This document shows, piece by piece, positions 6,156 through 43,659 of a stretch of DNA of 64,000 nt (within the stretch, counting starts at the first letter, position 1; the number at the start of each line of letters is the position of its first letter). The notes below the pieces were generated by a model. It was not told where the DNA came from and ran no database searches. It worked only from the letters and a program-made list of their open reading frames with translations. The position numbers and the translations under genes were made by a program. The stretch is from a bacterium (GTDB lineage: Bacteria > Patescibacteriota > Patescibacteriia > UBA2196): assembly GCA_035387885.1 (NCBI GenBank), contig DAOOOW010000003.1, forward strand, positions 3,498-67,497, read 5' to 3'.

Positions 6156-7073
6156 ATGGTTAATAAAAAAAATAAAATTTATCAATGGTTCTTGCCTCAC
6201 GAAGATAATGGTTATAAGCCACATTCTTTAAGACATAAAAGTTTGGCCATTTATTCTAGTATTTTGATAAGCGTGAAAATTTTAGTCGCTTTTATTCTTC
6301 TTTTAAGTTATCCAAGTCCAGCGGAATTTTCCACCATTACCATTAATAGGATAGTCGAATTAACCAATCAAGAAAGAATAAAAAATGGTTTGCCGGCTTT
6401 AGAACATAATTCTGTTTTGAATTTGGCAGCTGATAAAAAAGCGCAAGACATGTTGCAAAATAATTATTTTGCTCACACATCACCTGCAGGAATTAAACCC
6501 TGGTTTTGGTTTAATGAGGTTAAATATAATTATACATATGCTGGAGAGAATTTGGCCATGAATTTTATTGAAGCCGAAGATGCTCTTGGGGCCTGGATGA
6601 ATTCTCCAAGTCATAGGGAAAATATTTTGTCAAAAAATTTTGAAGATATTGGCATTGGAGTAGCGGTTGGACAAATTAATGGTATGGAAACAACTATTGT
6701 GGTGCAAATGTTTGGTAAAACTTATACTAAAGTAGCTGGTGAATCTTTTGTGCCGACTTCAGAACCGAATCCTGTAGAACAAATAACTGGCCAGCCCACT
6801 TTGGGCGAAGAAGCCTCACAAAAAGAAGTGCGATTAGAAGCCGTTAATAATCAAGGCTGGATGACTAAATTAATTTATTATTCCGAAAGATTTTTTATAG
6901 TTTTCTTGGCCTTTATTTTAATTAATTTGTTGTTGACAATTATTGTCAGAGTGGAAATTCAACATAAACCAATAATTTTACACAGTTTGTTTGTAATTTT
7001 ATTGGCTTTAGTTATGATTTTTATTAAATTTCATTTTATAGAACAGATAGGGCGTGATTTAAATATCATATAA
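6156..7073 (+). CDS. CAP/SCP (PR-1, YkwD-like) domain protein with N- and C-terminal TM segments
   Basis: Motifs HRENIL, GENLA and FAHTSP are typical of the CAP domain. Confidence 0.7.
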   Translation: MVNKKNKIYQWFLPHEDNGYKPHSLRHKSLAIYSSILISVKILVAFILLLSYPSPAEFSTITINRIVELTNQERIKNGLPALEHNSVLNLAADKKAQDMLQNNYFAHTSPAGIKPWFWFNEVKYNYTYAGENLAMNFIEAEDALGAWMNSPSHRENILSKNFEDIGIGVAVGQINGMETTIVVQMFGKTYTKVAGESFVPTSEPNPVEQITGQPTLGEEASQKEVRLEAVNNQGWMTKLIYYSERFFIVFLAFILINLLLTIIVRVEIQHKPIILHSLFVILLALVMIFIKFHFIEQIGRDLNII

Positions 7074-7090
7074 ATAATAATATAATATTT

Positions 7091-8365
7091 ATGCTTAAAA
7101 GTAACAAAGTTTTAAAGATGCCAGATGGTTTTTTATGGGGTACAGCCACGGCTGCTCACCAAGTGGAAGGTAATAATATTAATTCTGATTGGTGGCAATG
7201 GGAACAAAAAAATGTCGGTAAAATTTTAGATGTTAAAGAAAAAAAATTCCGTAACAAAAAATTTGAACCATCAGGACTTGCTTGTGATCACTATAGTCGC
7301 TTTGAAGAAGATTTTAAATTAATTGAAGAATTGGGCAATAATGCTCATAGATTATCAATCGAATGGGCTAGAATAGAGGCCGAAGAAGGTAAATTGAATT
7401 TAGCAGAATTAGAACATTACCGACAAGTTTTAGAATCTTTAAAAAATAAAAAAATTAAAGTCATGTTAACCTTAAATCATTTTACTTTGCCCTCATGGTT
7501 AGCTGATAAGGGTGGTTGGACTAATTTTAAATCACCTTTTTATTTTAATCGATACGCAACTTTTGTGGCTAAAAATTTAGGACATCTAGTAGATTTTTGG
7601 ATTACTATTAATGAACCAGAAATTTATATGGACATGAGTTATATGTCAGGGTTTTGGCCACCACAAAAAAAAGATATTAAATTAGCTGGTTGGGTTTATT
7701 TTAATATGGCCAGAGCGCATAAAAAAGTTTATAAAAATATTCATAAAATTTTAGATAAAAAAGGACATAAAACTCAAGTTGGTTTTTCTATGAACGTGAT
7801 GTCTTTTGCTTCTTATCGCAAGCATAATTTTTGGGAATTATTTTTTGTGCATGCCGCTGATAGAATTGTTAATCATTCGTTTTATGATTTAACAAAAAAA
7901 TCTCACGATTTTTTGGGTGTTAATTATTATTTTAGGGTTAGACTTAAAAAAAATGAAGGCAGTTTAATACCCGCAGTTGATGAAGTGCATGAAGATGAAA
8001 GTGAACTTAGTGACATGGGGTGGGTGGTGTACTCTCATGGAATTTTTGATGTCTTGATGGATTTTAAAGATTTTAATTTACCAATTTATATCACAGAAAA
8101 TGGCATTGCCACTGAAGATGAAGACCAGCGAGCTAAATTTATTAGTAATCATTTGGCTGAAATTCATCATGCTATTCAAGCGGGTGTGGATGTACGAGGA
8201 TATTTTTATTGGTCGCTTTTAGATAATTTTGAGTGGGATAAGAGTTTTGGACCAAAATTTGGTTTAGTGGCAGTTGATCGGAAAAAAAAGACTCGAAAAC
8301 CCAAAGAAAGTTTTTATGCTTATCAAAAAATATGTCAAACTAATACCGTGAGGCCGGTTGCTTAA
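7091..8365 (+). CDS. glycoside hydrolase family 1 beta-glucosidase
   Basis: Motifs FLWGTATAAHQVEG, TINEP (acid/base) and ITENG (nucleophile). Confidence 0.85.
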   Translation: MLKSNKVLKMPDGFLWGTATAAHQVEGNNINSDWWQWEQKNVGKILDVKEKKFRNKKFEPSGLACDHYSRFEEDFKLIEELGNNAHRLSIEWARIEAEEGKLNLAELEHYRQVLESLKNKKIKVMLTLNHFTLPSWLADKGGWTNFKSPFYFNRYATFVAKNLGHLVDFWITINEPEIYMDMSYMSGFWPPQKKDIKLAGWVYFNMARAHKKVYKNIHKILDKKGHKTQVGFSMNVMSFASYRKHNFWELFFVHAADRIVNHSFYDLTKKSHDFLGVNYYFRVRLKKNEGSLIPAVDEVHEDESELSDMGWVVYSHGIFDVLMDFKDFNLPIYITENGIATEDEDQRAKFISNHLAEIHHAIQAGVDVRGYFYWSLLDNFEWDKSFGPKFGLVAVDRKKKTRKPKESFYAYQKICQTNTVRPVA

Positions 8366-17933: not shown

Positions 17934-18329
17934 CAAGGCGGGTGAACGGCTGCCCCGATGAGCGCAAGCAATATTGGGGAGGAAAGTCCGGACATTATAA
18001 AAAATGGTAGTCGCGAAATGCGACCAGGCATAAGAATTACTAAAAAAATAAATCACGATCGTGTTATTTTTTAAGGACAAATTCAAAACCTCGAGACAGT
18101 GCCACAGAGACAATAATAGTCCCGCATTTGCGGGATCAAAGGTGAAAAGTGAATTGGTGTTGATTTTAATCAGCTACAATTCTCGCCCAATGGTGACATT
18201 GGTGCGTGGCAAACCTTACCTAATGCAATCCCTATGGGGAGCTTAGATAGATAGTCGTATTTATTCGTAATATTCGCTTTTATTAGCAATATTCGAATAA
18301 AACAGAATCCGGCTTATGATCCCGCCTTG
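17934..18329 (+). ncRNA. rnpB: RNase P RNA (bacterial type A)
   Basis: GGGAGGAAAGTCCGGAC P4 strand. AGTGCCACAGAGACA...GCGGGATCAAAGGTGAAA matches the E. coli J11-12/P12 region. 3' ACAGAATCCGGCTTAT P4 strand. P1 pairing caaggcggg/cccgccttg. Confidence 0.85.
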
Positions 18330-18346
18330 GACAAATAAAATTTAAT

Positions 18347-21545: not shown

Positions 21546-23471
21546 TTAATTTATTTTCTCAGGATTTATATCTAGCATAACATTTTTTGGCAGATTATTC
21601 AAAATTTTATCCAAAGTAATATCTAATGGAATTTTGGCAATCAAATTAAATTTAAAGTTTTTGTTTTGATGAGTATCTGGCAATGGTCCAAGAAGTTCTA
21701 TTTTTTCATCAATATTTTTAATAAATTCCGATATTTTTTTTAAAGAATTTTTTACTAATAATTCTTTTTTATCAGTGGCTATAAATTTAACCAATTGCGA
21801 AAATGGTGGATAATTAAAGTCTTGTCTAGTTTGCAATTCAGAATTATAAAATATTTCTGGCTTATTTTCTTTAATACTTTGGATGACTAAATTTTCTGGT
21901 ATATTAGTTTGTAAAACAAAATCAGCGTTATTATGAGCCGAAAAAATATTATAAAACAGCTGATAAGCCTTTTCCTCGGCTCGAAAATCACCAATATTTA
22001 ACAATTGATCAAAATTAATAAAAGCAATCAAAGCAAATTCCTTTAAATCTATTTTATTAATAACAAATCTGGTGCCAATAATTATCTGGTAATCAGCTGT
22101 TGTTTTGTGTTCCAACTTATCCAACTCTAAAATCTTGGCTTCTGGCAAAAGTTTTTGTAATTCACTTTTAACTTTTTGTGTACCCGCGCCCTTAAAATTT
22201 ATATTAATCCCGGAACATTTTGGACAAAATGGTGACATGTCTTCATGGTATTTACACCAAGAACAAACCAATTGCTTTTTTTTATTTTCATAAGCCAAAT
22301 TATTAGCACATTTTGGACATTTAAAAACATATTCACAATCTTGACAATTGACTAATTTAGCAAAACCAATACGATTATGAAACAAAAATATTTTCTGCTT
22401 ATTATTTAGTTTTTCTTTTATATTTGCTAATAATTTATCAGAAATGGGATTATAATTGCCACCCTGTCTTTCATTTTTTAAATTGACTATGCTGACAACT
22501 GCCTTTGGCCCAATGTTGCCACCTTTTTTGTCATCCTCGCGGAAGCGAGAACCCAGAAATTTTATTTTATTTGCAAATTTTTTTTTCTGGATTCCAGCTT
22601 TCGCTGGAATGACAGCCAAATTGTAAGTTTCTAAATTTGGTGCTGTCGTAGTCAAAACTAATTCCGCTCCAAAATTTTCCGCTAGCCATTCTGCCACATC
22701 TCTGGCGTCAAATCTTGGATTTGCTTCAGATTGTTTGTGATTCCAACTCTCGGCGTTTAAAATTATAAGATGTTTTAAATTAACAAACGGTAAAAAAACA
22801 GCAATTTTTGTCCCGATAATAATTTTATTTTTATTATTTAAAACATTTTGCCAAGTCTGGAAATAATCTGATTTTTTAATTTGACTATGAACAATAGCCA
22901 CATCTTTTTCTTTTACAGAACAATTGATTATTATTTTTTTAATTAAAGAAATTTCTGGTATTAAAATTAAAATTTGTTCTTTATTTTTTAAAGCCAATTT
23001 TATTTTTTCTTTAATTAAATTTTCTACTTCTGAAATATCCCGATACCATAATAATTGTGCTTTCTTTTTATTGTTTTTAATTTTTATATTTTTTTTCTGA
23101 TTTCCCTGCCTCGCCAGCAGGCAGGTGCTGGCGTATTTTGAATTTTTTTTAGGTAGATTCGGTACTAATGTTTTGGCTAAGCCAGTTAAAGAGCTGCCGG
23201 TTGATTGAGCTATAAATTTTATTAATTCAATTTGTTTGGCATTAATAATTGGTAATAGAGTAATAATTTTTATAATTTTTTTTAATTTAAAATGATAAAT
23301 TGGTTTTTTATTTTCTAAACCAATTATTAAACCATTAATTTTTTTATGCCCAAAATCTATAGCTACAATTTGGCCCAAAGAAATTACATTTTCCAATTCT
23401 AAAGGCACGGTATAGGAAAAAAAATCCAAACTGGCTGGTAATTTTAAAAGTGGAATAATTTGTGCTATCAT
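21546..23471 (-). CDS. priA: primosomal protein N' (PriA) homolog with degenerate helicase motifs
   Basis: PriA Cys-rich zinc region CQDCEYVFKCPKCAN...CSWC...CPKCSG. ILILIPEISL aligns to VMVPEIGL and IIGTKIAVFLPF to IGTRSALFTPF. Walker A is replaced by YRDISEVENLI and DEEHD by NAESWN. Confidence 0.8.
   Translation of the reverse strand: MIAQIIPLLKLPASLDFFSYTVPLELENVISLGQIVAIDFGHKKINGLIIGLENKKPIYHFKLKKIIKIITLLPIINAKQIELIKFIAQSTGSSLTGLAKTLVPNLPKKNSKYASTCLLARQGNQKKNIKIKNNKKKAQLLWYRDISEVENLIKEKIKLALKNKEQILILIPEISLIKKIIINCSVKEKDVAIVHSQIKKSDYFQTWQNVLNNKNKIIIGTKIAVFLPFVNLKHLIILNAESWNHKQSEANPRFDARDVAEWLAENFGAELVLTTTAPNLETYNLAVIPAKAGIQKKKFANKIKFLGSRFREDDKKGGNIGPKAVVSIVNLKNERQGGNYNPISDKLLANIKEKLNNKQKIFLFHNRIGFAKLVNCQDCEYVFKCPKCANNLAYENKKKQLVCSWCKYHEDMSPFCPKCSGININFKGAGTQKVKSELQKLLPEAKILELDKLEHKTTADYQIIIGTRFVINKIDLKEFALIAFINFDQLLNIGDFRAEEKAYQLFYNIFSAHNNADFVLQTNIPENLVIQSIKENKPEIFYNSELQTRQDFNYPPFSQLVKFIATDKKELLVKNSLKKISEFIKNIDEKIELLGPLPDTHQNKNFKFNLIAKIPLDITLDKILNNLPKNVMLDINPEKIN
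22530..22613. repeat. 84-bp palindromic element (gtcatcc family) inserted in-frame in priA
   Basis: Arms gtcatcctcgcggaagcgagaacccagaaa and tttctggattccagctttcgctggaatgac. Translates to ...IPAKAGIQKKKFANKIKFLGSRFREDDKKGG... Confidence 0.6.
23105..23125. repeat. family A palindromic mini-element (inverted copy) in-frame in priA
   Basis: cctgcctcgccagcaggcagg. The extended 33-bp match to 1246-1278 is in reverse orientation. Translates to TCLLARQGNQ. Confidence 0.65.
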
Positions 23472-24789: not shown

Positions 24790-24799
24790 TCCTTTGTTT

Positions 24800-24853
24800 G
24801 TCATCCCCGCCGGTCTCGCCATGAATCAGGCACACAGAGCTGGGATCCCGTGA
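24800..24853. repeat. GC-rich palindromic element (gtcatcc...gggatcc family) just 3' of gap
   Basis: gtcatccccgccgg...gggatcccgtgaa. Related to 27055-27091. Confidence 0.5.
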
Positions 24854-24872
24854 ATATAACATGGAGGTTAAT

Positions 24873-25037
24873 ATGTTTTATATAGCATATTATTTATTAA
24901 TTTTGGTTGTTTGTTGCATTATTTTTTTGATTATGATTTTTGGTATTATGTTTTGGAGGTTTAAAATAGCCAAAACACAAACGGAAAAAATTTTTTCACT
25001 AAAAAAGCCACTCAGCAGAGTGGCTTTTTATGTCTAA
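24873..25037 (+). CDS. small hydrophobic peptide (54 aa, one TM, basic C-terminus)
   Basis: GGAGG RBS 6 nt upstream. MFYIAYYLLILVVCCIIFLIMIFGIMFWRFKIAKTQ... The 3' end runs through hairpin DR1. Confidence 0.3.
   Translation: MFYIAYYLLILVVCCIIFLIMIFGIMFWRFKIAKTQTEKIFSLKKPLSRVAFYV
25005..25026. repeat. hairpin direct repeat DR1 (aagccact-cagcag-agtggctt)
   Basis: 8-bp stem, 6-nt loop, followed by a T-run. Near-identical copy at 25511-25532. Confidence 0.7.
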
Positions 25038-25073
25038 CTTTAGCTAAAATATTTTGCTATACATAACTTTTGC

Positions 25074-25100
25074 TTGACAAATCTCTCTCTCTGCTATAAT
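25074..25100 (+). promoter_or_regulatory. near-consensus sigma70 promoter TTGACA-N15-TGcTATAAT with a (CT)5 spacer
   Basis: Seen directly. A GGGAGGG Shine-Dalgarno sits at 25164-25170. Confidence 0.6.
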
Positions 25101-25173
25101 GGAAATATCAAAAAAGATATACATTGTTACAGTAAATGCAATGAGCAATAAATCTAACTCCTAGGGAGGGATT

Positions 25174-25497
25174 ATGTCAAAAGTGAAAGCAAGAGAGGTG
25201 TTGTCAGTAAGTAAACACGGTCCTGACTACCACTGGTTTCATCTGGTAGTCAACGGGCTGCAAACACTGACGGTTTCTGATGCTGCAGCGGTATGGATCG
25301 TAGATGATACGGTTCATAAGACCACTGCAATTATCACCAGAGCTTGGGAAAAGTATGATGATCAAAAAGATCTCGTTGTTAAACGGGCTAAAATCACTGG
25401 CCCGGAGTTTCAAATCCTGAATCTTCTAAGTAGCCTTGGGATGGGGACTCCTGAAGTCGCAGCTATTCCTTGGCAAAAAAATGAAGATGCTGTGTAA
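25174..25497 (+). CDS. hypothetical protein (107 aa) on a compositionally foreign cassette
   Basis: GC is about 45-50% against about 28% in the flanks. Codon usage differs (ctg/ggc/acg rich). Strong promoter and RBS. Flanked by hairpin direct repeats. Confidence 0.6.
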   Translation: MSKVKAREVLSVSKHGPDYHWFHLVVNGLQTLTVSDAAAVWIVDDTVHKTTAIITRAWEKYDDQKDLVVKRAKITGPEFQILNLLSSLGMGTPEVAAIPWQKNEDAV

Positions 25498-25510
25498 TCT
25501 TCGTCTTGAA

Positions 25511-25532
25511 AAGCCACTCAACAGAGTGGCTT
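25511..25532. repeat. hairpin direct repeat DR2 (aagccact-caacag-agtggctt)
   Basis: Differs from DR1 by one loop base. Also serves as a bidirectional terminator between the cassette and the convergent GT gene. Confidence 0.7.
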
Positions 25533-25548
25533 TTGTATTTAATATTTT

Positions 25549-26736
25549 TTATTCCTGGTAGACTTTTTCCGTCTCTCTCAGCATTTTTTCCAAGCTAAAA
25601 TTTTTTATTTTTTCCAAATTATTGTGGCTGAATTTTTCTGCCAATTTTGGATCATCCAAAATTTTTTCTAAAGCCCTAGTAATTTCTCTGGGTTTTTCTT
25701 TGTTAACTATTAGACCATTAGCATCTTGTTCAACAATTTCTAACATGCCTCCAACAGAGGTGGCCACAACAGGTAATCCAGCAGCCATGGCTTCCATAAC
25801 AGAATAGGAAAAACCTTCTTTAACAGAGGGCAAACAAAAAATATCAAAAGCTTTTAAAAGTTCATAAGCTTTATCAATATTACCAACAAGAAAAAAAACA
25901 TTCTCTAAATTTAATTGCTTAATTTCACGTTCTAGGTTTTTTCTTTGTCCACCTTCACCAATAACTATAAAAATAACTTGTGGATTTTTTTCTTTTAAAA
26001 TTTTGGCTGCTCGAATTAAGTAAATTAGACCTTTGGTGGCATATAAATTGGCAATAGTGCCAATAAGTGGTGAGTAATCCCTAATTTGCCTGCCTGCCGG
26101 CGAGGCAGGTAATCTGTAATTGGTAATTAATGTTTTTCTAGCTTCAGATTTTTCTAAAAAATTTAATTTAGTTAAATCAATACCGTTGTGAATAGTAATA
26201 AATTTATGATGGGGAGCTATTTTGTGATTTAAACCAGTGATTTTATCTAATTCGGAAACACAAATGATTTTATCTTTAAAATGTCCAGATATTCTTTCAG
26301 ACCATTGGTAAAATAATTTTCTACCAAGAGATATTGGTTCGTTAAACACAAAACCATGAACAGTATAAATTATTTTGACTTTTTTACCACTTATCTTTTT
26401 ATAAAGCCAGCCCATAACTGCGCCGGTCGAGCCAATTTTACTGGAATTTAAATGAATAATATCTGGTTGAGATTTTTCAAGTAGCCGATAAATTTCTAAG
26501 CCTGATAAAAAATCATGCCAGAGATTTATTTCTCTGACAACATGTTTAAGTCGCCAAACTTTAAAACCCTTTTGAGACAAACTTTCTAGCCAATCAACAA
26601 CGGGGTGTTCTTTTTTTTCTCCGACCGCAATTTCTATAATATATTTATTAGCAGGTAAATTTTCTGCCAAATCAATAATATATTTTTGGGCGCCACCAAA
26701 TTCACTTTGAGTGACAAGATAGAGAATTTTAATCAT
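25549..26736 (-). CDS. GT4 family glycosyltransferase
   Basis: GT-B N-terminal GGAQ motif and C-terminal EGFSYSVMEAMAAGLPVVAT. In-frame family A element at 26089-26109 (PASPAGRQ). Confidence 0.8.
   Translation of the reverse strand: MIKILYLVTQSEFGGAQKYIIDLAENLPANKYIIEIAVGEKKEHPVVDWLESLSQKGFKVWRLKHVVREINLWHDFLSGLEIYRLLEKSQPDIIHLNSSKIGSTGAVMGWLYKKISGKKVKIIYTVHGFVFNEPISLGRKLFYQWSERISGHFKDKIICVSELDKITGLNHKIAPHHKFITIHNGIDLTKLNFLEKSEARKTLITNYRLPASPAGRQIRDYSPLIGTIANLYATKGLIYLIRAAKILKEKNPQVIFIVIGEGGQRKNLEREIKQLNLENVFFLVGNIDKAYELLKAFDIFCLPSVKEGFSYSVMEAMAAGLPVVATSVGGMLEIVEQDANGLIVNKEKPREITRALEKILDDPKLAEKFSHNNLEKIKNFSLEKMLRETEKVYQE
26089..26109. repeat. family A palindromic mini-element, in-frame in a GT4 gene
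   Basis: cctgcctgccggcgaggcagg, identical to 1257-1277. Confidence 0.7.
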
Positions 26737-26792: not shown

Positions 26793-28022
26793 ATGCAACT
26801 CAAGCAGGAAAAACCCAAAATTTTAATTTTTTCTTTAGCTTATTTTCCATTTATTGGTGGTGCGGAAGTCGCGGTAAAAGAAATTATTACACGTTTACCG
26901 GAATTTGAATTTGACATGATTACTTGTAATTTAGATGGACAACAAAAAGCCGAAGAACAAATTAATAATATAAAAATTTATCGAGTTGGCAGAGGAAAAT
27001 TTGCTAAAATATTTTTTCCATTTTTGGCATACAAAAAAGCATGCTCTCTCTTTTGTCATCCCGACGATCCGCCAACCGGCGGACGGGATCCTTATGTTGT
27101 CTCCAGTCTCTTGACTGGAGACGCAATGCACTATCGCTCCAGTCAGGAGACTGGAGCGAACAACTATATTATCTGGTCCATCATGGCCAATCAAGCCGGT
27201 CTAGCTGCTTTATTTTTTAAGAAAAAATTTCCTCAAGTTAAATTTTTATTAACTTTGCAAGAAGGCGATTCTGTTTTTAATATTTGGAAAAAAACTTGGT
27301 ACATGCGCCCGCTTTATAAAGCCATTTATCATTCGGCTGATTGCATTCAAGCTATTAGTAATTTTTTAGCCAAGAGAGCTCTTAAATATGGTTACAAAGG
27401 ACCAATAGAAGTGATACCCAACGGAGTAGATTTAGAAAAATTTAAGTATCTTGAAAAAAATTTGCTTGATAAAAAAGACAAAGTAATTTTGACAGACTCT
27501 CGATTGGTGGAAAAAAATGGTGTGGAATATTTAATTAAAGCCATGATTCTAATTAATATTAAAATTAAATTATTAATTTTAGCTGATGGACCACTGAGAG
27601 AATATTTACAAAAACTGGTTGTTAATTTAAACTTGCAAGACAGAGTTGAATTTTTGGGTTTAATTCCTTATGATAATATTCAAAAATATTATGCCGAGGC
27701 AGATGTTTTTGTGCGGCCGTCATTAACAGAAGGTTTTGGTAATGTTTTTATTCAAGCTATGGCCGCTGGAATTCCAGTTATTGCCACACCAGTTGGCGGT
27801 ATTCCAGATTTTTTGAAAGCAGGGGAGACGGGATGGTTTTGTGAAGTAAAAAATCCACAAAGTATTGCCGAAAAAATAAATTATATTTTAGATGAAAAAA
27901 ATAAAGATGAAGTTGAACGAGTAGTGGCTAATGCCAAAAAGATGGTTGAAGAAAAATATACTTGGGAAATTGTGACTAAAAAAATGAAAAATATTTTTGT
28001 TTCCCTAATTTTTAATTTTTAA
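26793..28022 (+). CDS. GT4 family glycosyltransferase carrying an in-frame insert of about 105 nt
   Basis: C-terminal EGFGNVFIQAMAAGIPVIATPVGG. The insert encodes CHPDDPPTGGRDPYVVSSLLTGDAMHYRSSQETGAN. Confidence 0.8.
   Translation: MQLKQEKPKILIFSLAYFPFIGGAEVAVKEIITRLPEFEFDMITCNLDGQQKAEEQINNIKIYRVGRGKFAKIFFPFLAYKKACSLFCHPDDPPTGGRDPYVVSSLLTGDAMHYRSSQETGANNYIIWSIMANQAGLAALFFKKKFPQVKFLLTLQEGDSVFNIWKKTWYMRPLYKAIYHSADCIQAISNFLAKRALKYGYKGPIEVIPNGVDLEKFKYLEKNLLDKKDKVILTDSRLVEKNGVEYLIKAMILINIKIKLLILADGPLREYLQKLVVNLNLQDRVEFLGLIPYDNIQKYYAEADVFVRPSLTEGFGNVFIQAMAAGIPVIATPVGGIPDFLKAGETGWFCEVKNPQSIAEKINYILDEKNKDEVERVVANAKKMVEEKYTWEIVTKKMKNIFVSLIFNF
27055..27158. repeat. composite GC-rich palindromic insertion (gtcatcc...gggatcc unit plus a family B unit with two hairpins)
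   Basis: 27096-27129 matches 1063-1096 closely. Second hairpin cgctccagtcaggagactggagcg. Confidence 0.65.
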
Positions 28023-31665: not shown

Positions 31666-32805
31666 ATGAAAATCCTAATGCTTTCCATTGACAAAGGCCT
31701 ACTTGGAAAAAATCCCATGGGCGATGTAATTGAGCGTCATAAAAAATATGGCGAGTTTTGTGAACAACTAGATATCGTTGTGTTTTCTAAGGTGCATTAT
31801 GAAAAACAAAAATTATCAAATAATGTTTTCGTATATTCTACTAATTCCCTAACTCGTTATAATTTTTTCTTTGATGCCTATAAAATTGGTAAAAAATTAT
31901 TTAAAGAAAATTATTACCAATTAATAATAGGAGATTTTTTTTCTGGCTTAAGCGCTTGGTGGCTTAAGAAAAAATTTAAAAGCAAATTATTATTAACTTT
32001 ACACGGTGATTTTTGGCACAACAAGGCTGGTTTACAATCTTTGTGGCATAATTATTTTTTATTGTTTTTTAATAAAATTTTATTAAAAAAAGTTGATAGT
32101 CTTAGAGTGGTTTCTAATAGTTTAAAAAATAAATTAATAAAAATGGGAGTAAATCCAGAAAAAGTTTGGGTCATTCCAGTAGCAGTTGATTGGCAAAAAA
32201 TAAATCAATTTGATCCGCAGATTAAAAAAGAAATAGAAAACAATTTTCCCGGTAAAATTATATTATTTATCGGACGCTTAGATGCAGTGAAAAATTTATC
32301 TTGGTTTTTGGATGTTTTTAAAAAAGTGGCCGAACAATATATTGGATCGGTAAAATTAGTTATAGCCGGTCAAGGTGTGGAAGAAAAAAAATTAAACGCA
32401 AAAGTCCAGCAACTTAATATTGAAGATAGAGTCAAATTTGTTGGGCAAATTCCGCACAATGAATTACCCAACTATTTGGCAGCCTGCAATATTTTGGTTT
32501 TGCCATCTTTATCCGAAAGTTTTGGCAAGGTTTTAATTGAGGCAGGAGCAGCTGGTAAACCAGTTGTGGCCACAATGACAACTGGAGCTAAAGAAATCGT
32601 AGAGAACGGTGTTACGGGCTTTTTAACACCTATTGGTGATGCCGAGGCTATGGCCGAAGCTATTTTAAAACTGTTAAATAATACAGATTTGGCAGAAAAA
32701 ATGGGCGCCCAAGCCAAAGAATATATTAAACAAAATTTTGATGGTAATGTTAATTTGCAAAAAATTAAAGAAATGTGGTCTAAAATAGTTAATGATAAAA
32801 CCTAA
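31666..32805 (+). CDS. GT4 family glycosyltransferase
   Basis: C-terminal ESFGKVLIEAGAAGKPVVAT...GVTG. Confidence 0.8.
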   Translation: MKILMLSIDKGLLGKNPMGDVIERHKKYGEFCEQLDIVVFSKVHYEKQKLSNNVFVYSTNSLTRYNFFFDAYKIGKKLFKENYYQLIIGDFFSGLSAWWLKKKFKSKLLLTLHGDFWHNKAGLQSLWHNYFLLFFNKILLKKVDSLRVVSNSLKNKLIKMGVNPEKVWVIPVAVDWQKINQFDPQIKKEIENNFPGKIILFIGRLDAVKNLSWFLDVFKKVAEQYIGSVKLVIAGQGVEEKKLNAKVQQLNIEDRVKFVGQIPHNELPNYLAACNILVLPSLSESFGKVLIEAGAAGKPVVATMTTGAKEIVENGVTGFLTPIGDAEAMAEAILKLLNNTDLAEKMGAQAKEYIKQNFDGNVNLQKIKEMWSKIVNDKT

Positions 32806-32828
32806 AACCAATCAAACAGGAGGAAAAA

Positions 32829-33020
32829 ATGAATTCAGCGAAAATCGTATCAATTAAAGAGCAAACAAGACTGGCTACATTTAAAGCAGAATTGAAAGAT
32901 GAAATCTTCTTTTCTGCCAATGAAGAAGGTTTTGACCGCTTTTTTTCTAGAGTTAGACGTTTGCTAGATAATCAAGAAAGAGAAGAGAGCCGTAGAAAAC
33001 TTCAGGAGTCTGAAGAATAA
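32829..33020 (+). CDS. hypothetical small charged protein (63 aa)
   Basis: AGGAGG RBS 6 nt upstream. GC elevated. Confidence 0.4.
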   Translation: MNSAKIVSIKEQTRLATFKAELKDEIFFSANEEGFDRFFSRVRRLLDNQEREESRRKLQESEE

Positions 33021-33065
33021 AAAGTGAGTATTAAAATAAACACAACAAACAACAGGGGGTAATTT

Positions 33066-33158
33066 ATGTTGACTGCCCAAGAGCTTCTAGAAGAGAGTTC
33101 TGAAATTTTAGAAGGTATTAATGATCCTGAAGAAAGAAGACTTGTGGAACTGTTGTAG
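33066..33158 (+). CDS. hypothetical acidic micro-ORF (30 aa)
   Basis: GGGGGT RBS. MLTAQELLEESSEILEGINDPEERRLVELL. Below the track cutoff. Confidence 0.2.
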   Translation: MLTAQELLEESSEILEGINDPEERRLVELL

Positions 33159-33185
33159 ATAGAAAAAGTCGATATTATATTAAAA

Positions 33186-33320
33186 ATGCGTCTTGACCAT
33201 ATTGAATCTTGGCCGTCTTTTTTAGACAGACTTGAAAGAATTTTAGAGTTTGCTAAATTGCACAGTTGGACTGCCCTTAAGGAGTATGAAACTAATTTGG
33301 CATTAAAAAAGAAAAAATAA
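33186..33320 (+). CDS. hypothetical micro-ORF (44 aa)
   Basis: MRLDHIESWPSFLDRLERILEFAKLHSWTALKEYETNLALKKKK. Weak RBS. Confidence 0.2.
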   Translation: MRLDHIESWPSFLDRLERILEFAKLHSWTALKEYETNLALKKKK

Positions 33321-40404: not shown

Positions 40405-41787
40405 ATGAAAATTTTTATCTTAAACCCATTGCTTTTTACCGATGAATTGCACGGAATTGCGCGCAAAAGACAGCCGTTGGAATTGGCCTATATGGCCAGT
40501 TTGTTTAGAGGAGAACACGAAGTTAAACTTTTGGATGCCAACGCTCTAAATTTGGATTTGGGACAAACAGTGGCCGAAATTAAAAATTTTCAGCCGGATA
40601 TTTTGATTTTGACTTCTACGCCATTGGATCGCTGGGAAGTGCCATCGCATTCACATATTAAATTGTTAATTAATAATTTAATTAAAACAATTAATGTTTT
40701 AGATATTCCGTATGTAATTTTGACCGGTGCGCACGGCACCATTATGCCGGAAAAAATGTTGAAAGAAACGAAAGTTAATTTTGTGGTGCGTGGTGAACCG
40801 GAGATGGTTGTAAAAGATTTGGTGGAAAAAATTTCAGTCGGTGAAAAAGATTATTCCGAAATTAAGGGAATTTCATATCTTCAAAATGGTGAAATAAAAA
40901 ATAACGCGGACGCGAAAAGAATTAAAAATTTGGACGAACTGCCGATGCCGGCGTATGATTTGTTGCCGATGGAAAAATATCGTTATACTTTTAACGATAT
41001 TCCCGAACCGTTTTCTTTAATGCTAACTTCCCGCGGGTGCCCCTTTAATTGTACCTATTGTTTGAAAGTGATGATGCCCGATTTTTATATTACACGCAGT
41101 CCTGAGAATGTGGCTGAAGAAATAAAATATTTAACAAAAAAATTTGGTGTTAAGGGAATTTATTTTCAGGATTGGGAGTTTTTGATTGATAAAAAAAGGA
41201 TAGCGACAATTTGTGATTTGATTTTGAAAGAAAATTTGGAAATTAAATGGGGTTGCAATGCGCGGGCGCCGGATGTAGACGAAGAAATTGTGAAGAAAAT
41301 GAAAGATGCCGGTTGTGTGCGAATTAATTTGGGTTTTGAAACGGGTTCGCAAAAAGTTTTGGATTTGGCGCAAAAAAAAGTGAAAGTTGAAGAAATGAAA
41401 AGAGCGTTTGAAATCTTAAAAAAATATGAAATAAATGTCGGGATTTATTCAATTTTAAATTTGCCGGGCGAGACAAGACAAACCATTGCGGAAACGGAAA
41501 ATTTTTTGGCGGAAAATGATTTGAAAACAATGTGCGCACCAAATTTGCCGATTCCATATCTTGGCACGCCACTTTATGAAATGTTAAAAAAGCAAGAAGG
41601 CAAGGAGGTGGCTTGGGAAGATTTAGATAAATATGCCGGTCGGGTGGGGGTGGTGCAAAGTCCGTTTTTAGCCAAAATTTATCGCTGGCATTACAAATAT
41701 AAATATAGCTTGGGCAGGTGGTATTTTTTAAAGCCAGAATTTTATGGGCATTTTTTAAAATTTATAAAAAATATATTAAAAATATGA
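40405..41787 (+). CDS. B12-binding-domain radical SAM enzyme (class B)
   Basis: MKIFILNP N-terminus and LTSRGCPFNCTYC. Confidence 0.8.
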   Translation: MKIFILNPLLFTDELHGIARKRQPLELAYMASLFRGEHEVKLLDANALNLDLGQTVAEIKNFQPDILILTSTPLDRWEVPSHSHIKLLINNLIKTINVLDIPYVILTGAHGTIMPEKMLKETKVNFVVRGEPEMVVKDLVEKISVGEKDYSEIKGISYLQNGEIKNNADAKRIKNLDELPMPAYDLLPMEKYRYTFNDIPEPFSLMLTSRGCPFNCTYCLKVMMPDFYITRSPENVAEEIKYLTKKFGVKGIYFQDWEFLIDKKRIATICDLILKENLEIKWGCNARAPDVDEEIVKKMKDAGCVRINLGFETGSQKVLDLAQKKVKVEEMKRAFEILKKYEINVGIYSILNLPGETRQTIAETENFLAENDLKTMCAPNLPIPYLGTPLYEMLKKQEGKEVAWEDLDKYAGRVGVVQSPFLAKIYRWHYKYKYSLGRWYFLKPEFYGHFLKFIKNILKI

Positions 41788-42929
41788 AAATAGCAATTTT
41801 TTCTTTTGACATTGATCGTGCTTATGGAACAGGTAATATTACTTATGAATTATGCGTGGAGCTTTATAAAAAAGGAGTCGATTTTACTTTGTTTTTACCA
41901 CAGATTAATAACCGTGACGGCAAACCAAACAGTGAAAAATGTGTCGGATTTCCTTTTACAATTAAATGTGTAATGCCACCCTATGTGTCTGGACTTGGTG
42001 AAATGATTAAAAAGAAACTGATTGTGCAATATTTAAAAACTTATAATTTAAAAGATTTTACTTTAGTTCATTGTTTGTTTGAATTTCCGCATTCATTTAT
42101 TACCGCCCGCTCGGCCAAAAAAAATAAATTGCCTTTTATTATGGGCGCGCAAGGAACCTATGGGGTTTTGCCTTTAACTAAAAGTGCCCGACCGTTTTTA
42201 AAGTGGTCTTATAGCCAAGCTAAAGAAATTATTGTGCCGAGCCAATTTACCAAAGAGATGATAAACAAATACGCTGGTGAAAATTATCCCATTTCCATAA
42301 TTCATAATGGTGTTAATTTTTCTCGTTTTGAAAAAGCACCAGACATTTCAGATTTACGAGAAAAATACAAAGGACAGAAAATTTTGTTGACAGTTGGTGG
42401 ATTAATTCCACGCAAAGGACAGGATTTGGTTATTCGGGCGTTGCCAAAAGTCGTGGCCAAGCATTCGAGTGTAAAATATATTTTAGCTGGCACCGGCCGA
42501 ATGCTAGAACCGTGGCAAAAAATGGCGGAAAGTTTGGGTCTGGCAAACAGGGTTGAATTTTTGGGGCGAGTTGAGGCGGACGATGTCAATCGGTGGTTTC
42601 ATTTTTGTGATATTTATGTTCATACACCAATTGTGGTTAATTTAAGTTTTGAAGGTTTCGGCATTGTTTATATCGAAGCTAGTGCTTGTGGCAAGCCGAT
42701 TGTTGCGAGCGACGCGGGTGGTATTCGTGACGCTATTATTGAGGGTAAAACCGGTTTAATCGCGCGCGATAGAAATATTAATGATATCGCTGATAAAATT
42801 ATTAAATTATTAGACAGCGAGGATTTGCGCCGTCAGATGGGCGAAGCAGGCAGACAATATGCCAAAGAGCACGACTGGTCAATTATTACTGATAAATTTA
42901 TTGAAAAGTACAAACAATATAGTTTATGA
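41784..42929 (+). CDS. GT4 family glycosyltransferase
   Basis: C-terminal EGFGIVYIEASACGKPIVASDAGG. Start taken at MKIAIFSF. The track ORF has a 5' extension overlapping the upstream gene. Confidence 0.8.
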   Translation: MKIAIFSFDIDRAYGTGNITYELCVELYKKGVDFTLFLPQINNRDGKPNSEKCVGFPFTIKCVMPPYVSGLGEMIKKKLIVQYLKTYNLKDFTLVHCLFEFPHSFITARSAKKNKLPFIMGAQGTYGVLPLTKSARPFLKWSYSQAKEIIVPSQFTKEMINKYAGENYPISIIHNGVNFSRFEKAPDISDLREKYKGQKILLTVGGLIPRKGQDLVIRALPKVVAKHSSVKYILAGTGRMLEPWQKMAESLGLANRVEFLGRVEADDVNRWFHFCDIYVHTPIVVNLSFEGFGIVYIEASACGKPIVASDAGGIRDAIIEGKTGLIARDRNINDIADKIIKLLDSEDLRRQMGEAGRQYAKEHDWSIITDKFIEKYKQYSL

Positions 42930-42946
42930 AATTTTGCAAAATAAAA

Positions 42947-42979
42947 ATGCCGACCTGATAGAAAGATCGGCGTTTTTTG
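42947..42979. terminator. bidirectional terminator (imperfect hairpin plus T6)
   Basis: gccgacctgatagaaagatcggc followed by tttttt, with an A-run on the other side. Confidence 0.45.
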
Positions 42980-42990
42980 ACGAATATTAT

Positions 42991-43659
42991 TTACTTTCTG
43001 GCAAGCCCATAGGCTTCCAGTGCCAACCTAGCAACCCTTTCTGGATACCAGTGTCCGCAGACACCGGGCACTAAGTCCTTAAGATCGAACAACCTTATTG
43101 CCGTATGATCGCTATCGTGGTACAGAGGTTGCTGGCCGTTATAGGTGGCAAGATAGCACAGGTTGATGGTGTCACATAATGTGCCGAGTGCCTCGGTATC
43201 TTCTGCGATCGTGCGATAGACGCCAATTAAAGTTACAATGGTTATATCCATACACGAATCCGAATCATCACGCAAGTTATTTTGCGTTATAAATTGTTCA
43301 ATCGACAACGATGTTAGACCACATTCTTTAGCTACTTTCCATAGAAGAAATTGCTTAACTGGGTAGAGAGTTAAAATTGTTCCACCCATAATCCACCAAC
43401 AATTTTTAAAAGGTGGTTTAGCACGAAGAATCATGGGAACCTTACCGTTTTCGATAATTACTGCATCAGCACAAGCCGACGTTAGTTTTGAACGATATAA
43501 TTTGTAAGTACTAACGCTCAGTCTATCTCTTGATATCTTAATAGATGGTTTAGTTATTAACAATAAATCTTGGCTAAACTTTTTTATCAAATTATCACCT
43601 AATTCAGTTATATTTTTTTCTATAATAATTGTGTCAAGCAAAATACCTGATTTGTTCAT
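42991..43659 (-). CDS. hypothetical protein with a Nudix-like fold and a degenerate Nudix box
   Basis: AVIIENGKVPMILRAKPPFKNCWWIMGGTI resembles a Nudix beta-strand and loop. The box is GGTILTLYPVKQFLLWKVAKECGL, missing the REx2EE glutamates. GC is elevated in the 3' half. Confidence 0.3.
   Translation of the reverse strand: MNKSGILLDTIIIEKNITELGDNLIKKFSQDLLLITKPSIKISRDRLSVSTYKLYRSKLTSACADAVIIENGKVPMILRAKPPFKNCWWIMGGTILTLYPVKQFLLWKVAKECGLTSLSIEQFITQNNLRDDSDSCMDITIVTLIGVYRTIAEDTEALGTLCDTINLCYLATYNGQQPLYHDSDHTAIRLFDLKDLVPGVCGHWYPERVARLALEAYGLARK

Follow-up and report, generated by a model that had tools for sequence, protein, structure and literature searches.

How does a single GC-rich gene come to stand between two near-identical hairpins in an AT-rich bacterial chromosome, and was it brought there as a unit? 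The question is raised by a locus in a 64-kb window, that is, the whole stretch of 64,000 nucleotides analysed here (contig DAOOOW010000003.1, assembly GCA_035387885.1), in whose coordinates all positions are given unless a comparison contig is named. The gene, called ORF107 below, is a 107-amino-acid open reading frame (ORF) at 25174-25497 on the + strand, exactly where the original prediction had placed it. Its place is a terminator zone flanked by two convergent genes, gap and GT4, the latter coding for a glycosyltransferase (GT), in an organism that the gap protein places near Candidatus Kuenenbacteria. Comparison contigs or loci are designated by L and a number, proteins by P and a number. 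The analysis makes it probable that ORF107 belongs to a horizontally acquired, self-contained and moron-like transcription unit, set in a terminator zone of a Kuenenbacteria-like chromosome of the Candidate Phyla Radiation (CPR). The acquisition and the anatomy of this unit are well supported. It is a tidy example of a moron-type accessory gene and no new kind of system. The ORF107 family itself is rare and uncharacterised, and it is found both in CPR chromosomes and in phage-like contigs.

The composition of the gene is the first sign of a foreign origin. ORF107 has a GC content of 44.4%, just under the 45-50% initially announced, against 30.4% for the window as a whole. The calculation over windows of the same length (324 nt) preserves this shift, only 0.46% of them being as GC-rich. 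The distinct codon usage that had been noticed is borne out as well: the GC content at third codon positions (GC3) reaches 0.393, compared with 0.238 +/- 0.042 and a maximum of 0.361 among 50 long ORFs, and the synonymous-codon log-odds of ORF107 are the lowest of 51 genes. Since both GC3 and the choice of synonymous codons are the most atypical, the composition shift is real and exceeds an amino-acid effect. A gene richer in GC than its contig is also the rule elsewhere in the family, in 8 of the 8 bacterial homologue loci examined.

The second line of evidence comes from a relative in which the gene is lacking. In contig L073, whose gap protein is 83% identical, gene order is kept over 13 kb, with the succession Bac_transf...GT-def-priA-gap-GT4(-)-GT4(+)...GtrA-GT-rSAM common to both. 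There, gap stops at 7014 and GT4 at 7103, and the 88 nt between them hold one bidirectional terminator hairpin, AAAAACCGCTTAATTGGAGCGGTTTTTTTT. This is the single-hairpin empty site that had been anticipated in a related genome, and the unit is an addition when compared with this syntenic relative. The orthology of this hairpin with those of the window (CCGCT/AGCGG versus CCACT/AGTGG) is suggestive by eye, with a weak alignment, and is not relied upon. No phage gene was found in the 20 kb around the unit, whose neighbours (priA, def, gap, the GT genes) stand in synteny with those of L073. A scan of genome contigs with the GT4 protein returned distant glycosyltransferases only. With a single, distant outgroup, the choice between gain and loss rests mainly on composition and on the patchy distribution of the family. 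The cassette is present without exception in conspecific strains, which are 99.7% identical in the 1-kb region.

The spacer between the two convergent genes comprises the following elements.

24790-25548: whole spacer from gap to GT4, 759 nt; the region of gain, with a counterpart of only 88 nt in L073.
24797-24850: GC-rich palindromic repeat, TTTGTCATCCC...GGGATCC, of the kind of a miniature inverted-repeat transposable element (MITE); outside the transcription unit, a separate small insertion.
24873-25037, + strand: small hydrophobic ORF of 54 codons with a GGAGG Shine-Dalgarno (SD) sequence and native AT-rich composition; status uncertain.
25003-25028: hairpin 1, palindrome AAAAGCCACTCAGCAGAGTGGCTTTT, resembling a bidirectional intrinsic terminator (-17.6 kcal/mol, z -5.9).
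25074-25100, + strand: predicted promoter, with a -35 element TTGACA at 25074-25079 and an extended -10 element TGcTATAAT at 25092-25100.
25107-25173, + strand: 5' leader of about 67 nt, its start deduced from the position of the -10 element; SD sequence GGGAGGG at 25164-25170.
25174-25497, + strand: ORF107, 107 amino acids, modelled as a soluble protein with a small beta-barrel and a helix.
25509-25534, both strands: hairpin 2, matching hairpin 1 at 25 of 26 positions (-16.9 kcal/mol).

Hairpin 2 follows the 3' end of ORF107 after 11 nt, and 45 nt separate hairpin 1 from the promoter. The setting between gap and GT4 and the GGGAGGG sequence had been recognised correctly in the original prediction, which did not mention the palindromic repeat and the 54-codon ORF, both lying between gap and hairpin 1. 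In this arrangement, a sigma-70-type extended -10 promoter would drive a transcript consisting of the leader, the GGGAGGG ribosome-binding site and the 107 codons. Hairpin 2 would serve as terminator for ORF107 (+ strand) and, in the opposite direction, for GT4 (- strand), and hairpin 1 would end transcription coming from gap and the small ORF, insulating the cassette. The 54-codon ORF reads through hairpin 1, which encodes its final 11 codons; it is called as a gene in L070, and Pfam gives no significant hit for it. It may code for a genuine small membrane protein, or else have arisen as a by-product when the spacer was rearranged. No Rfam family matches the 5' leader.

The promoter had been described as near-perfect, with 15 nt between TTGACA and the TG dinucleotide. 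All its elements are indeed present; the 15 nt are the distance between the two hexamers, 2 nt below the optimum, and only 12 nt precede the TG (TTGACA-N12-TGcTATAAT, with TG at 25092-25093 and TATAAT at 25095-25100). A consensus scan allowing 16-18 nt did not list it because of this spacing. Judged from its sequence, it is best called a putative promoter of the extended -10 type, with a consensus but badly spaced -35 element. High expression of ORF107 would be expected from the promoter and SD sequences only. A promoter-like motif antisense to the leader and start of ORF107 (TTGACA-18-TAGATT, 25180->25151, - strand), pointing to hairpin 1, was considered and rejected: its TTGACA arises from conserved Met-Ser-Lys codons and its -10 element is not conserved elsewhere.

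A (TC)5 tract at 25082-25091 occupies most of the interval between TTGACA and TG in the window, as well as in L001 and L002. In L069-L072, four contigs recovered from other samples, the tract is (TC)4, at 6310-6317 in L069, which reduces the hexamer spacing to 13 nt. Neither allele attains the 17-nt optimum seen at homologous promoters. Over 1 kb, the sole other change in the (TC)4 contigs is GAT to GGT in ORF107 (D65G), and this allele is also linked to a gap variant. Because of these linkages, the alleles look like lineage markers. Simple repeats in the -35/-10 spacer underlie phase-variable promoters such as those of Haemophilus hif, Neisseria porA/opc and Mycoplasma vlp. The locus shares with these contingency promoters a simple repeat in the spacer that varies in length, (TC)5 versus (TC)4, so that a strain difference of one unit shifts the hexamer spacing from 15 to 13 nt. 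It differs from them by the shortness of the tract, by alleles that follow lineages rather than being mixed within samples, and by the failure of both alleles to reach the optimal spacing; the comparison is drawn at the sequence level. Two Logan contigs stop beside the tract, at 25068 and 25079, which could reflect heterogeneity and proves nothing.

What ORF107 encodes had not been recognised, and it turns out to be a member of a genuine family with a patchy distribution. A word-index protein search returned only the identical protein. An exhaustive HMMER search of 1.84 billion representatives yielded 15 true homologues of 55-136 amino acids, with 25-52% identity, two further large matches (P0011 and P0012) being discarded as repeat-protein artefacts. 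A profile search added four homologues and extended the size range to 142 amino acids, for a total of about 20 clusters among some 1.8 billion representatives, which is extremely sparse. The alignment displays the conserved motifs REVLsV.K.G.DY.WF, W41 and I.GP..QI.NLL.SLG..TP, and F22, W41, I74 and G89 are invariant besides the initiator Met. A longer subfamily has an extra C-terminal helix of about 24 residues. No significant match to ORF107 was obtained in Pfam, NCBIfam, PHROGs, PADLOC, the sequences of the PDB or BFVD, and none of the 18 family members compared with the PADLOC models (0/18) matches them.

The AlphaFold model of ORF107 (pLDDT 89, pTM 0.78) consists of six or seven strands and one helix. 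Fold searches gave only sub-threshold matches of the oligonucleotide-binding (OB) or cold-shock domain type, and small beta-barrels (cold-shock, OB, RPA) recur throughout the weak matches. Two family members, P0021 (20.1 bits) and P0017 (12.5 bits), match the Pfam family PF20287 (SH3DP) through their N-terminal strands, below its gathering threshold of 25, and ORF107 itself does not match it. The OB/cold-shock and SH3DP resemblances are weak and are taken as leads, not as an assignment: such small beta-barrels provide the top structural matches, but ORF107 has no significant structural or sequence match to them. A further likeness, to cspA, lies in the organisation of the gene, both being monocistronic and possessing a leader as well as an extended -10 promoter. 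At the invariant positions of the family there are only hydrophobic or aromatic residues and glycine, and there is no conserved polar triad. For this reason, the product is likely to be a binding module, with a nucleic acid or a protein as partner, and not an enzyme. In the proposed mechanism it would bind its partner without catalysis and would most likely be a phage-derived accessory protein; a role in phage-host conflict is only a guess.

The neighbourhoods of the homologues are consistent with a gene that moves with its own signals. Homologues of the short form are stand-alone genes in unrelated contexts: in L010, a contig of Candidatus Moranbacteria, beside a 23S-IVP gene and the hrcA-grpE-dnaK cluster, next to smpB in L018, upstream of rpsO in L021 and upstream of argS in L068. 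Those of the long form lie in long unidirectional arrays of small ORFs, in L014 and L015, together with a DNA ligase, a metallophosphoesterase, a homing endonuclease and several PHROG families. By this gene content L014 and L015 are phage-like contigs. Five bacterial loci have a promoter TTGACAAAt...TGcTAnnAT with a strong SD sequence, the spacing being 16-17 nt outside the window, and terminators are found downstream of homologue genes. Promoter and gene appear to travel together, given the promoter type common to these five loci and the GC-rich gene in eight of eight. One homologue, with promoter and terminator, makes up a 574-nt contig recovered in two assemblies (L019/L020, coverage 229 and 10.6), the ends of which form a perfect 14-nt inverted repeat, ACTTTGTGTTTGAG...CTCAAACACAAAGT. 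An adapter or amplicon artefact is one explanation of this contig, a mini-element bounded by terminal inverted repeats the other, and because of the possible artefact it was not counted as a case of hairpin ends.

Among known systems, the unit looks most like a phage moron. A moron is an independent transcription unit added to a phage genome, as is gene 15 of HK97 (PMC3594210). The ORF107 unit is likewise an obvious addition, separating two genes that adjoin each other in a relative (759 nt instead of 88 nt). Its GC content departs from that of its neighbours, it appears to carry one small gene under a promoter and a terminator of its own, and phage-like contigs contain relatives of that gene. 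Unlike a moron, it sits in a bacterial chromosome amid syntenic housekeeping and envelope genes, and not in a prophage; a copy of one and the same terminator flanks it on either side, and it is known from its sequence only.

The two hairpins are the most peculiar feature of the locus. They had been described as two 22-bp hairpins differing by one loop base; the pair and its single difference stand, and the length is 26 nt. The sequence is repeated in direct orientation with 25 of 26 positions identical, the sole mismatch (G/A) falling in the loop. Both have stems of 11-12 bp, a stability of about -17 kcal/mol, and an A-run before and a T-run after the stem; the GC-rich stem-loop followed by a U-run that characterises an intrinsic (Rho-independent) terminator is found on both strands, so that termination is predicted in either direction. 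Tolerating up to 3 mismatches brings up no further copy in the window (0 expected by chance), and the window contains no other gene-scale pair of high-identity direct repeats. A metagenome scan with the hairpin 22-mer found it in 44 unrelated contigs, always as a single-copy terminator, and no second cassette. Since these occurrences are unrelated and single-copy, the hairpin is not the end of a widespread element. Since chance convergence is moreover negligible, the two copies in the window are related by descent. The hairpin pair would have arisen by duplication of a resident terminator when the cassette inserted, which is plausible but unproven, and roughly twice as likely as an origin from a self-spreading repeat. 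This duplication is favoured by the presence of only two copies, bracketing exactly ORF107, and of one hairpin in the empty site. A function of the hairpins as recombination sites, also envisaged at the outset, is a conjecture.

A possible but less likely reading takes the hairpins as palindromic repeats that spread by themselves, comparable to repetitive extragenic palindromic (REP) sequences or MITEs and able to form terminators; they would then be uninformative on the arrival of the gene, which may still be acquired. The window does hold other families of short palindromes, GCCTGCCTGCCGGCGAGGCAGG (1256, 26088) and TTTGTCATCCC... (22538, 24797, 27050), and in some cases a copy sits in frame within a gene whose L073 orthologue lacks it. 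Around homologues, too, the flanking hairpin or palindrome is a multi-copy intergenic repeat at two loci, with three occurrences over 2.5 kb in L021, ahead of three successive genes (rpsO is one of them), and three over 1.6 kb in L018. The hairpins of the window are, like REP sequences and bacterial interspersed mosaic elements (BIMEs), short intergenic palindromes that can act as terminators. They differ in having only two copies in the 64 kb, both at ORF107, a placement with a chance of about 2% given some 55 intergenic sites, and the other palindrome families of the window are GC-rich and not terminator-like. At three homologue loci the flanking repeat is absent, and flanking hairpins are not a property of the ORF107 gene family. 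It is quite improbable, for its part, that the unit is a non-autonomous mobile element moved in trans, with the hairpins as its own ends, either in the manner of IS200/IS605 and palindrome-associated transposable elements (PATEs) or as a module of the Xer/dif type. Near-identical hairpins in direct orientation at either end, differing only in the central loop, are what such an element would show, and taking in one more base at either end of hairpin 1 (25002-25029) allows it to be written as a 28-bp palindrome of 11-6-11 layout, in the manner of the Xer/dif type. Similarity between the two flanks is also more frequent at family loci (5/9) than around control genes taken from other genomes (2/146, p = 3.6e-6). 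This enrichment was discounted: the controls come from other genomes, the L018 and L021 repeats are multi-copy in repeat-rich genomes, and the L014 repeat is a phage promoter motif standing before about 18 genes. No integrase, transposase or recombinase is called within 20 kb in the L001 annotation, no search having been aimed at RAYT-type transposases. The unit is, moreover, alone in 64 kb, the empty site already has a terminator hairpin, and no cassette-end motif is conserved across the homologue loci. A dif-like site has the consensus ATAA-N6-TTAT, and an attC site is an imperfect palindrome of about 55-140 nt with R''/L''/L'/R' boxes and a GTTRRRY core; inspection of the hairpins revealed neither motif. 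The likeness to integron cassettes and to clusters of attC sites lacking an integrase (CALIN arrays) lies in the size of about 500 bp with one ORF, in the similar direct repeats that form hairpins at its bounds, and in an ORFan-like protein. The unit differs from them by hairpins of 26 nt without R''/R' boxes, by a strong promoter of its own and by the lack of an integrase Pfam among the called genes of L001.

It is also unlikely that ORF107 was ancestral at the locus and deleted in the L073 lineage, for example by recombination between the hairpins that would leave one of them. Such a deletion would yield the structure seen in L073, and the single outgroup is distant. This scenario has to account, however, for the GC3 and codon usage of ORF107, the most atypical of the window, and for a family that is extremely sparse and scattered over unrelated contexts. 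L073 also lacks the 54-codon ORF and the MITE-like repeat in the spacer between gap and GT4, a loss beyond the reach of a hairpin-to-hairpin deletion. The idea of a structured non-coding RNA, with ORF107 as a fortuitous reading frame, starts from the folding of the 430-nt transcript (z = -5.8 on the + strand versus -3.3 on the - strand; -3.5 for the coding sequence alone), and it is effectively refuted. No Rfam family matches the transcript at E <= 1, the RNase P RNA lies elsewhere (17934-18333), and no tmRNA or tRNA was found. Protein homologues with 24-51% identity, conserved residues and a confident fold occur in contigs of 29-55% GC, and the folding of their coding sequences ranges from z = +0.7 to -2.9, so that the strong fold is not conserved. 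ORF107 is a real protein-coding gene because it has homologues with conserved motifs, a confidently predicted fold and no Rfam match, and because the folding of its mRNA is not shared by its homologues.

Several points nevertheless weigh against an acquired moron-like unit engaged in phage-host conflict, and they bear on different parts of it. L073 is the sole outgroup, and a distant one, with priA and GT4 only about 50% identical. The spacing of the promoter hexamers is suboptimal here (15 nt) and in other strains (13 nt), and expression is predicted only. The isoelectric points of the family range from 4.7 to 10 with no conservation of charge, which does not indicate a generic nucleic-acid-binding role. 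Searches in PADLOC and PHROGs, tblastn against the INPHARED phages and pattern scans of IMG/VR returned nothing significant. The duplication of the terminator on insertion is conjectural, and a self-spreading palindromic repeat family could give the same picture. A much broader interpretation would see in ORF107 an unrecognised class of promoter-plus-gene cassettes, moved in trans, that integrate at intergenic boundary elements and duplicate them (terminator hairpins in bacteria, repeated promoters in phages). These cassettes would arrive insulated, slippage of (TC)n would tune their expression, and their products would form a new beta-barrel fold family in CPR phage-host conflict. We give this broader interpretation little credence.

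Other observations concern the repeats and boundary elements at the homologue loci and in the window. In L014 (1-12420, GCA_030690205.1), the motif GTAACA(C/A)(T/A)(T/A)TCAAA-N7-9-CGTA(A/T)AC precedes about 18 small genes, presumably as a promoter specific to the phage; its copies on either side of the ORF107 homologue, and only these two, are identical at 28 of 28 positions. In L021, from a genome of 55% GC, a repeat of about 50 nt (22-75, 924-975 and 1433-1472) precedes three consecutive genes, the ORF107 homologue and rpsO among them. It is made of a hairpin with a 10-bp GC stem followed by TTGAC, and forms an array of hairpin-plus-promoter boundaries. In the window, the GC-rich MITE-like repeats start with TTTGTCATCC(C/T) and lie at 22456-22626 (in priA), 27040-27150 (in GT4+, 26793-28022) and 24797-24850 (intergenic), the end motif of the latter recurring at about 22538 and 27050. 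The two copies in priA and GT4+ are in frame and add about 20-33 residues (e.g., AVIPAKAGIQKKKF..., CHPDDPPTGGRDPYVV...), which are missing from the L073 orthologues; they resemble in-frame insertions of the type of the Rickettsia palindromic elements. A distinct GC-rich palindrome of 22 nt, GCCTGCCTGCCGGCGAGGCAGG, occurs in identical form at 1256-1277 and 26088-26109, 24.8 kb apart. The second copy lies in the coding sequence of GT4(-) (…RLPASPAGRQ…). A diverged copy upstream of priA (23104-23125) scores as a terminator.

Regarding composition, the glycosyltransferase island contains two other GC-rich genes at 41718-43659, a 403-amino-acid GT (+ strand) and a 222-amino-acid ORF (- strand), the latter with a GC3 of 0.36 and the second-lowest codon log-odds; both are probably further acquired genes. 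A bacterial class A RNase P RNA (+ strand, 131 bits), at the position given above, is among the four regions of the window with at least 42% GC. Among strains, all 41 mismatches between the window and the 99.6% identical contig L002 fall within 870 nt (32376-33245), which suggests a recombined tract in one gene of a polysaccharide locus. In L004 and L005, two short low-coverage contigs from different assemblies, the match ends at 25673, in the 3' part of GT4(-), and beyond this point L004 has 16 more bases, unrelated to the window, a hint of a breakpoint at the strain level.

CPR genomes are tiny, and gene gain and phage interaction in them are almost uncharted. The locus offers a before-and-after picture of such a gain, with, before, an empty site holding one terminator and, after, a gene with its promoter enclosed by two terminator copies, and thereby an example of how a Kuenenbacteria-like genome acquired a single gene. 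A rare protein family is defined as well, with a confident predicted fold and no structural or sequence relatives outside the family. If the insertion did duplicate the terminator, the locus would point to an unstudied route of integration; otherwise, ORF107 would be an ordinary accessory gene.

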